Source of the DNA: Octopus vulgaris
Taxonomy: Eukaryota
Assembly (NCBI GenBank): GCA_951406725.2
Contig: OX597815.1
Coordinates: 29,698,001 to 29,762,000, forward strand
Direction of reading: 5' to 3'
Length of the DNA: 64,000 nt
Positions 6,597 to 16,145 of this stretch are shown piece by piece. The notes beneath the pieces were generated by a model that saw only the letters and a list, made by a program, of their open reading frames with translations, made no database searches and was not told the DNA's origin. The first letter of the stretch is position 1. Every line of letters begins with the position of its first letter. The translations under genes and the position numbers were made by a program.

Positions 6597-6735
6597 ACAC
6601 AAAGAGAAAACACAACAATGCGAGGATGTGGAACAAGTACAGTGTTATTTGACGCTCAAGAAAGGAAAGAAGGAGGATTTAACGTTTCGAGCGGAGCTCT
6701 TCGTCAGAAACATAGGAGAAGGAAAGATCCAATGA
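6597..6735 (-). mobile_element. Penelope-like terminal-repeat fragment with minimal hammerhead (6677-6711)
   Basis: Minus strand guuu CUGACGA a-GAGC-ucc-GCUC GAAAC GUU aaau; second copy at 16940-17130. Confidence 0.6.
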
Positions 6736-7339: not shown

Positions 7340-7730
7340 GCTTGGAGCCAACGGAAGAAACACCAAAATGCCATAACCTAACCAGCACTCAAATTTGGAG
7401 ATACATCGGTTCAGTTGGAACTGCCTTTAAGTGACGCCTGTACAACCATAGGTCTTCTTTTAGGATTCCTGATATACGTTGCGTCACGTCCCTGACCAAC
7501 CACGTGTGACGCCTTAGAGATGAAGGAACTCCATACGAAATTAAATGGAGGCTTATAGAGCAACCGGGGCCCTATATAAACGTGAGCGGACGATGTAAGC
7601 TTTGCATAGCAGAGCGGTCAAGGATCCTTAAAGACTCGCTCGAATTGAAGACCCTTTAAGCTTCAGAAACAAGATCTATAGTCCTTGTCCGCATTTTAAA
7701 CACTACCTTCTGCAAGCGTGAGATTTCTCG
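7340..7730 (+). mobile_element. Penelope-like element GIY-YIG endonuclease remnant
   Basis: WRYIGSVGTAFK*RLYNHRSSF...YEIKWRLIE...RCKLCIAE...PCPH: YIG plus Cys/His motif, with stops. Confidence 0.75.
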
Positions 7731-14229: not shown

Positions 14230-14307
14230 TGTATGTATGTATGTATGTATGTATGTATGTATGTATGTAGACTTGTGTGCATTTATATGTGTCACTGTGT
14301 ATATACT

Positions 14308-14516
14308 TTTTTACTTGTTTCAGTCATTTGACTGTGGCCATGCTGGAGCACCGCCTTTAGTCGCGCAAATCGACCCCAGGACTTATTCTTTGTAAGCCTA
14401 GTACTTATTCTATCGGTCACTTTTGCCGAACCTCTAAGTTACAAGGACGCAAACACACCAGCATCGGTTGTGAAGCGATGTTGAAAGGATAAACACAGAC
14501 ACACAAGCACACACAG

Positions 14517-14551
<35 letters not shown>

Positions 14552-14800
14552 GATATATATATATATGGGTGTGTGTGATTGTGTATAGAAGAATATATTA
14601 ATAAAAAGAATTCCAACCTTGTCTGATTTTCACGTTTTATTTACAATCTTATAATGATATATTATAAGATAATATATTATATACGACGAGCTTCTTTCAG
14701 TTTCCGTCTACCAAATCCACTCACAAGGCTTTGGTCGTCCCGAGGCTATAGTAGAAGACACTTGCCCAAGGTCCCACGCAGTGGGACTGAACCCGGAACC

Positions 14801-14803
<3 letters not shown>
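14308..14803 (-). mobile_element. SINE family A
   Basis: Matches copies at 31097, 37026, 51151; internal microsatellite. Confidence 0.85.
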
Positions 14804-14833
<30 letters not shown>

Positions 14834-15042
14834 ATGATAAATATCAAAGTGAGTTATATACAGTAGCGGTAACACATCGTGACGTATATTTGCCATTTCA
14901 ATATGGCTACCCCTAAGGGTGGATGCTACTGTAGTTTTTAGCCCCAGGAGGACACACTCCTCCAGCTGGCCATAGACACACTTTCTGTGTCCTGTCAGTA
15001 TTTGCAAAGGGAAGTCATCCTTCCCGTCTTCAACTTATGATA

Positions 15043-15087
15043 CACACGGACTCGAGTTTCGAGGTATTGACCTCTCGTCAGCGTGTG
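15043..15087 (-). ncRNA. Type I hammerhead ribozyme
   Basis: CACACG CUGACGA GAGGU-caau-ACCUC GAAAC ucga GUC CGUGUG; full core, stems I-III pair. Confidence 0.9.
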
Positions 15088-15474
15088 ACAATCATAGTTG
15101 TCGCCGAGAATTAGATTTCCTTCACAAATACTTATACTTTTTCCAGCGTCCACTGTCGCTGATATTGAAAAAGTGAAATCAAACAATGATAAATATCAAA
15201 GTGAGTTATATACAGTAGCGGTAACACATCGTGACGTATATTTGCCATTTCAATATGGCTACCCCTAAGGGTGGATGCTACTGTAGTTTTTAGCCCCAGG
15301 AGGACACACTCCTCCAGCTGGCCATAGACACGATGTGTTACCGCTACTGTATATAACTCACTTTGATATTTATCATTGTTTGATTTCACTTTTTCAATAT
15401 CAGCGACAGTGGACGCTGGAAAAAGTATAAGTATTTGTGAAGGAACTCTAATTCTCGGCGACAACTATGATTGT

Positions 15475-15519
15475 CACACGCTGACGAGAGGTCAATACCT
15501 CGAAACTCAAGTCCGTGTG
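15475..15519 (+). ncRNA. Type I hammerhead ribozyme
   Basis: CACACG CUGACGA GAGGU-caau-ACCUC GAAAC ucaa GUC CGUGUG; predicted cleavage after 15513. Confidence 0.9.
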
Positions 15520-15680
15520 TATCATAAGTTGAAGACGGGAAGGATGACTTCCCTTTGCAAATACTGACAGGACACAGAAAGTGTGTCTATGGCCAGCTGG
15601 AGGAGTGTGTCCTCCTGGGGCTAAAACTACAGTAGCATCCACCCTTAGGGGTAGCCATGAAATGACAAATATACGTCACG

Positions 15681-15719
<39 letters not shown>

Positions 15720-15722
<3 letters not shown>

Positions 15723-15877
15723 AATGGCTGTGTGGTAAGTAGCTTGCTTACGAACCACATGGTTCTGGGTTCAGTCCCACTGTGTGGCACCTTGGGCAAG
15801 TGGCTTCTACTATAGCCTCGGGTCAAACAAAGCCTTGTGAGTGGATTTGGTAGACGGAAACTGAAAGAAGCCTGTCG

Positions 15878-15929
<52 letters not shown>

Positions 15930-16145
15930 TGTATATGTTTGTGCGTCAGTGTTTGTCCTCCCAACATCGCTTGACAATCGATGCTGGTGTATTTACATCC
16001 CCGTAACTTAGTGGTTCGGCAAAAAGAGACCGATAGAATAAGTACTAGGCTTACAAAGAATAAGTCCTGGGTTCGATTTCTTCGACTAAAAGCGGTGCTC
16101 AAGCATGGCCACAGTCAAATGACTGAAGCAAGTAAAAGAGTAAAG
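15720..16145 (+). mobile_element. SINE family A
   Basis: Head tggctgtgtggt...ggttcagtccc, internal (TA)n, aagagtaa tail. Confidence 0.85.

Follow-up and report, generated by a model that had tools for sequence, protein, structure and literature searches.

Paired, fixed 3' ends suggest Penelope-type twin priming in a young hammerhead retrozyme family of Octopus vulgaris

How does a short non-coding ribozyme unit come to be inserted partly head to tail and partly inverted, and on which template was it copied? The question is raised by a locus at positions 14808-15720 of the window, i.e. the whole stretch of 64,000 nt of Octopus vulgaris DNA that was analysed (assembly GCA_951406725.2, contig OX597815.1, positions 29,698,001 to 29,762,000). 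We define U as the 352-nt unit read in the hammerhead sense, which is the reverse complement of window positions 14833-15184, and give positions within it as U1 to U352. The locus has the following features (method in brackets).

14808-14833, no strand: left (TA)n target tract (tract scan)
14833-15331, minus strand: left arm, 499 nt or 1.42 units, U206-352 followed by U1-352, with its 3' end at start site 2 (U352) (self-alignment)
14833-15184, minus strand: a single non-coding unit U, 352 nt (self-alignment, folding)
14833-14878, minus strand: 46-nt 'tail' separating the two fixed 3' end sites, U307-352 (family end mapping)
15043-15087, minus strand: type I hammerhead with a palindromic UCGA loop 3, predicted cut at 15049/15048 (U136) (Rfam Hammerhead_1, 32.2 bits, E 6e-6)
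15185-15331, minus strand: partial second unit U206-352, 147 nt, a copy of 14833-14979, lacking the hammerhead (self-alignment)
15329-15331, no strand: 3-nt microhomology at which the arms are joined 5' to 5' (arm overlap)
15329-15682, plus strand: right arm, 354 nt, U304-352 followed by U1-309, with its 3' end at start site 1 (U309) (self-alignment)
15475-15519, plus strand: type I hammerhead with loop 3 altered to UCAA, predicted cut after 15513 (Rfam Hammerhead_1, 29.3 bits, E 6e-5)
15681-15720, no strand: right (TA)n target tract (tract scan)

A first-pass annotation of the sequence had described a non-coding 352-bp unit repeated head to tail with 147 bp of redundancy, and the self-alignment agrees: 14833-14979 and 15185-15331 form a 147-nt direct repeat with 100% identity and a spacing of 352. 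The longest Met-initiated frame in the repeated unit has 38 codons, which makes it non-coding, and a protein search gave neither an open reading frame (ORF) with reverse transcriptase (RT) plus GIY-YIG in the unit nor a Penelope coding match near the locus. The inverted arm, its junction through a 3-nt microhomology and the (TA)n setting had also been read correctly. The right arm differs from the left by three substitutions and two deletions (1 nt and 3 nt), and TA tracts lie at both ends. Its 354 nt span 358 nt of template, which is almost exactly one turn of the unit, as the annotation had it, but as a signal this looks like chance. In the family described below, 6 of the 67 arms ending at site 1 stop at U299-316 where 3.4 are expected (P = 0.13); whole-turn stops show no excess, and we discarded 'exactly one turn' as a signal.

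Each arm holds a complete type I hammerhead. Infernal matched both to the full Rfam model (RF00163), at scores under its gathering score of 34, and hence a gathering-threshold scan of the window gave 0 matches and the hammerheads were recovered in E-value mode. The palindromic loop 3 is gone from the hammerhead of the right arm (UCGA to UCAA). Because the redundant 147 nt carry no hammerhead there is only one per arm, and since the two are in opposite orientations the locus is itself unable to release a monomer. Two consecutive hammerheads, which a 2026 preprint takes as the mark of an 'active' copy, are absent here and present in 50 of the 124 arms of the family. Elsewhere in the window we observed a decayed Hydra-like endonuclease fragment (7384-7629, E 1e-11) as well as motifs resembling a hammerhead at 6707 and 5952, both on the minus strand. 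The locus is flanked by two opposite-facing copies (14304-14805 and 15721-16142, 83-93% complementary) of an abundant repeat that we take to be SINE-like.

We searched the genome (2.8 Gb, 227 contigs) by BLAST with the monomer and recovered many copies. The 26-nt hammerhead core has 455 exact matches, against 0 for the reversed control, and the first 100 core matches listed correspond to 56 loci, which gives roughly 250 loci of this family (hereafter family A) in the genome. Our sample consists of 81 distinct loci, i.e. the best BLAST matches and nearly all the pattern matches listed for contigs C1-C3, and is biased toward long copies and copies with an intact core. One insertion is found twice on contig C1 (L033 and L034), inverted and ~1 Mb apart, as a segmental or assembly duplicate; L034 was left out of the counts of divergence, variants, haplotypes, end positions, tails and adjacency to P4, a Penelope family treated below. 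Family A consists of dispersed, short, non-coding tandem copies of a 352/353-nt unit, with arms of up to 6.0 units and totals per locus of up to 7.8 units (2733 nt). Units from different loci diverge by 1.54%. The family is thus multicopy and has no attached ORF, and the case that the annotation had named against itself, a unit that is single-copy or always attached to a coding Penelope element, is not the one observed. Non-LTR retrozymes are dispersed, have no LTR structure and make target duplications of more than 4 bp. Family A has its 455 core matches, duplications of 11-13 bp and, in each unit, a type I hammerhead matching RF00163 over its full length, if at 32.2 bits rather than 34. Judged by these sequence features, the insertion at the window locus belongs to a young, non-coding retrozyme family with a type I hammerhead.

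Related families give some indication of how the ribozyme may work. Sister family B has 198 matches of a 30-mer with at most one mismatch, and two further sister families are represented by L081/L185 and by L192, at identities of 68-85%. Older sister copies (L185:1943-2704, L192:201-420, L081:4718-4895, L121 and L122; 68-89% identical) show a similar inverted geometry, and the loop-3 palindromes of the L081/L185 and L192 copies differ. The 8-mer of helix III is self-complementary in four families, with the centres UCGA, CCGG, UAUA and UGCA. An alignment of 6 sequences has 100% pairing in stem I, 96% in helix III and 70% in stem II, at whose base the family B hammerhead has a mismatch; a 3-bp extension of stem I was unsupported (0% paired). 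The conserved self-complementary helix III fits dimeric hammerheads such as those described for amphibian retrozymes (PMC7229834). Folded as a circle, U reaches -115 kcal/mol with stem I formed (z = -8.0 relative to 60 shuffles), and a family B copy only z = -1.8. The hammerhead contains 1 of 30 transmitted variants and 17 of 143 singletons (Fisher P = 0.32, a comparison biased by the picking of loci), and we rejected selection on the hammerhead among transmitted variants. A search of the genome with RF00163 gave 6 matches, all in other families. At L092 and L093, hammerheads extended by a long insertion (their Rfam matches span 108 nt) lie beside decayed Penelope coding fragments.

The ends of the arms are the most informative feature of family A. 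The annotation had predicted varied permutation points among the copies. The copies do not support this: while the 5' ends are random and spread around the unit, the 3' ends are fixed at U309 and U352, falling at U300-309 in 67 arms and at U346-352 in 47. Two arms are present at 40 of the 81 loci, 4 of which have an eroded end. At the 36 with both ends intact, one arm always ends at U309 and the other at U352 (36/36, with the duplicates L033/L034 included). Independent ends would match in about half of the loci, and the chance of strict pairing is ~1e-11 for 35 independent loci (hand arithmetic). Family B follows the same rule at 5 loci.

The target sites and the terminal nucleotides are equally regular. 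Among 116 canonical 3' ends from the 81 loci, 108 are followed by (TA)3. We checked 10 loci for target duplications and found them at three non-TA insertions (11 bp at L003, 13 bp at L046 and 12 bp at L067); six of the other seven have no duplication and one has (TA)n only. The G at U307 is replaced by T in 35 of 62 terminal units and in 0 of 182 internal ones, which is what overwriting of the template by a TA primer at site 1 would produce. At 9 of the 40 two-armed loci each arm includes sequence that the other lacks. Hence, the second arm is a separate cDNA, and a fold-back origin of the inverted arm is ruled out.

These patterns are those of Penelope elements, in which a tail is found at one end only and is accompanied by an inverted truncated copy (PMC8557442). 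Family A has a 46-nt tail at one end only in 36 of 36 intact two-armed loci, together with inverted 5'-truncated copies, partial tandems and a bias to (TA)n. In the Poseidon element of the anole, two internal RT starts bound the tail and both target strands are cut and extended, and linear Penelope RNA has the same two starts in vitro (PMC11167929). We are therefore highly confident that the ends of family A are the 'tail' or two-start signature of Penelope elements and result from twin priming of the Penelope type. The annotation's view of a young non-LTR retrozyme with a Penelope-type inverted insertion is borne out by the multicopy family and by the pairing of long and short ends, as in Penelope elements. 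Its argument that two permutations imply a circular template is not supported. The 3' ends of the two arms are the two fixed start sites of the family, and two permutations that reflect two starts of the enzyme are no evidence of a circle.

The account that we favour, and think probable, is that a Penelope-like RT/endonuclease primed twice on one 352-nt RNA, most likely circular, and so wrote a two-armed insertion into (TA)n. We infer the self-cleavage, the circle, the identity of the enzyme and the order of priming from sequence patterns. Tandem source copies would be transcribed, and their hammerheads, probably acting as dimers that pair via the palindromic loop 3, would excise monomers for ligation into circles. 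The Penelope protein would introduce nicks ~12 bp apart, one in each strand of the target. One nick would prime at site 1 (U306/307), where the GAUGUGU of the RNA may pair with the TA primer through G-T wobbles, and the other at site 2 (~U352). Each cDNA would circle the template for a random length, after which the cDNA ends would be joined by microhomology, or one cDNA would be lost to leave a single arm. A bolder version can be offered only tentatively: a Penelope-like dimer could prime one closed circle at both start sites, using one target strand for each, and roll round it; obligate long/short pairing could explain inverted insertions of Penelope elements in general; and the mobiliser could be a non-homologous element of the Neptune type.

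Which element could supply the enzyme? Protein searches with Penelope fragments uncovered many young ORFs that are still intact, in the families P1, P1b, P2 and P3; a fifth family, P4, came to light at two family A loci. P1 (L138-L157, e.g. L145:3087-6522) has a 3364-bp unit with a 727-aa open frame, a minimal hammerhead and a 71-nt tail, and lies in (TA)n. Long and short ends are paired in 10 of its 10 two-armed loci (17 P1 loci). P1 is very young and intact, and is likely to be still active. P1b has an intact young ORF of 718 aa. P2 and P3 (L168-L181) are young, with RT/GIY-YIG frames of 781 and 785 aa and a separate upstream ORF of ~440-480 aa; the usual CUGANGA core is absent from the hammerhead-like motif of P3. 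P4 has a 43-nt tail and follows the end-pairing rule at 2 clean loci (L183, L193). We take P1 to be Hydra-like and P2-P4 to be Neptune-type, from the motif layout as set against passages of PMC8557442. Pfam returned no family name for the Penelope ORFs.

U has no DNA similarity to any of the five families compared (P1, P1b, P2, P3 and P4). The tail of family A (46 nt) is closer in length to those of the Neptune-type families (43 nt in P4, 38 nt in P3) than to that of P1 (71 nt). P4 adjoins family A at L042 and L057 only (2 of 81 loci), and 2 of 12 P4 loci have sister families nearby. The retrozyme arms at L057:1826-3600 and L042:1-2657 are joined to P4 with no TA spacer, by template switch or by insertion with target deletion. 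The abutting P4 pieces contain stops (for the L057 piece, identity to its best relatives is 93-95%), and P1/P1b ends likewise share (TA)n tracts with family A. As a consequence, the adjacency is not specific to P4, and Neptune-type elements are a weak lead as candidate mobiliser. Two loci considered as coding loci with two spaced hammerheads were rejected, L031 for being split by a simple repeat and L109 for having no ORF. With no homologous partner found among the five families, the Penelope link rests on the anatomy of the insertions.

Was the template a circle? We regard a circular monomer as quite likely to be the usual template, and this judgement comes from seamless crossings, shared haplotypes and homogeneous units, not from the two permutations. 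At least two cut sites are passed by 50 of the 124 arms. Changes at U133-140 accompany only 6 of 181 cut-site crossings (five substitutions and a nearby 42-nt deletion), and 5' stops at U131-142 are not enriched at the cleavage site (3 observed vs 3.7 expected). The two arms have the same subfamily haplotype in 36 of 39 loci, when 21% would be expected, and one of the three exceptions is a deletion artefact. Units of the same arm diverge by 0.48% and units of opposite arms by 0.54%. Finally, substitutions private to a locus (at sites covered at least twice) are found in every covering unit in 21 cases (up to 6/6), in a subset in 2 and as singletons in 130, a count from which positions 268-277 and 306-309, as well as units carrying over 7 changes, were excluded. 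Such a star-like pattern is expected if a single monomer is copied again and again. Many all-unit variants among the 21 span just 2 units or one unit per arm, for which any single template suffices; only L027, L039 (2 variants) and L081 have all-unit variants spanning at least 4 units.

The same twin priming might also have used the linear, uncleaved, multimeric transcript of a homogeneous tandem array, with circles as a by-product. Seamless crossings are equally expected from such a template, and autonomous P1 reads past its own hammerhead into a second unit. At L081, 116G is found in 4 of 6 units and in matching register in both arms, which argues for a multimeric template at that locus; L046 and L086 also have mixed variant patterns. 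For the anole Poseidon, uncleaved RNA is reported as the dominant in vitro substrate, hammerhead mutants as having no effect on insertion, and RNA-seq ends as not found at the cut site (PMC11167929). In Xenopus, 1 of 9 predicted retrozyme dimers self-cleaved (bioRxiv 10.64898/2026.07.22.740005). Yet a multimer could not lengthen an array, and loci reach 7.8 units. Singletons of the source should recur unit by unit in fixed order, whereas there are 2 subset against 21 all-unit cases, and partial cleavage should pile up 5' ends at U137, where there is no pile-up. We therefore hold this alternative to be rather unlikely as the general rule. Four sequencing runs that we guessed to be RNA have the unit in contigs with the end-to-start joint (4/4), which tandem DNA would give too; the 383-nt closed contig (353+30) of run X5 looks the same for circle and tandem and for RNA and DNA.

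Tandem growth could instead come from a linear monomer copied by end-to-end template jumping, or from later multiplication of the DNA by unequal exchange or circular DNA. Homogeneous units would also be expected, and unequal crossover has been invoked for tandem growth (bioRxiv 10.64898/2026.07.22.740005). Template jumping should scar the cut site, and the 181 crossings are free of indels there apart from the 42-nt deletion nearby; DNA-level growth predicts nested subsets of variants, of which we saw just the 2. Both routes appear improbable. Very improbable is that the unit is the pseudo-LTR of an autonomous Penelope element yet to be found, its copies being 5'-truncated ends: autonomous elements have the same end rule, retrozymes have been derived from pseudo-LTRs (bioRxiv 10.64898/2026.07.22.740005) and our partner comparison spanned five Penelope families only, but each unit is preceded by a further one, with up to 6 in an arm, and the Penelope coding DNA adjoining L042 and L057 is decayed, unrelated P4 with differing junctions. 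Copying from a circular monomer remains our preferred reading.

Family A acts like, and by its sequence features is, a non-LTR retrozyme. As in those of coral, mussel and axolotl (PMC7229834), the unit is non-coding, in tandem and within the 170-400 nt range (350-390 in mussel, 330/350 in axolotl), with a type I hammerhead with a short helix III, low GC, target duplications above 4 bp, co-existing Penelope elements and a predicted circle with extensive pairing in which the ribozyme can still fold. In those animals both self-cleavage and circular RNA have been demonstrated; here they are predicted from sequence. PMC7229834 proposes that circles are primed at the target DNA, with Penelope elements as strong candidates; its main text does not use the word 'inverted', and we found no description of fixed paired ends or a tail in it.

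With endonuclease-bearing Penelope-like elements (PMC8557442, PMC11167929) the family shares partial tandems, an inverted truncated arm, a tail at one end, AT-rich or (TA)n targets and two start sites bounding the tail. It differs from them in having no ORF, a tail of 46 nt rather than the 30-40 nt reported, and several turns of a 352-nt unit; here, moreover, long/short pairing was counted and is strict, and both arms come from one template. Vertebrate retrozymes (bioRxiv 10.64898/2026.07.22.740005) and Chlamys elements such as MRC1 (PMC8557442) are likewise non-autonomous, head to tail and Penelope-dependent. Their tie to Penelope is by co-occurrence and sequence similarity, in the preprint by co-occurrence and pseudo-LTR similarity across 35 genomes with no mollusc, whereas that of family A is by insertion anatomy; we found no argument from insertion ends in PMC7229834 or in the preprint. 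We found no published description of a cephalopod retrozyme or of a strict end-pairing count, in a search with Repbase/Dfam, supplements and subscription papers outside its scope.

Family A is a known kind of element, and the evidence on mechanism from its young copies is unusually clean. The results bear on the identity of the retroelement that copies animal retrozymes and on the use of circles as its template (PMC7229834; bioRxiv 10.64898/2026.07.22.740005), and on how Penelope elements build their tandem and inverted ends and their tail (PMC8557442, PMC11167929). With a 352-nt substrate whose two start sites are predicted to the base, a target in (TA)n, nicks staggered by 12 bp and intact candidate enzymes in the same genome, both questions can be tested directly.
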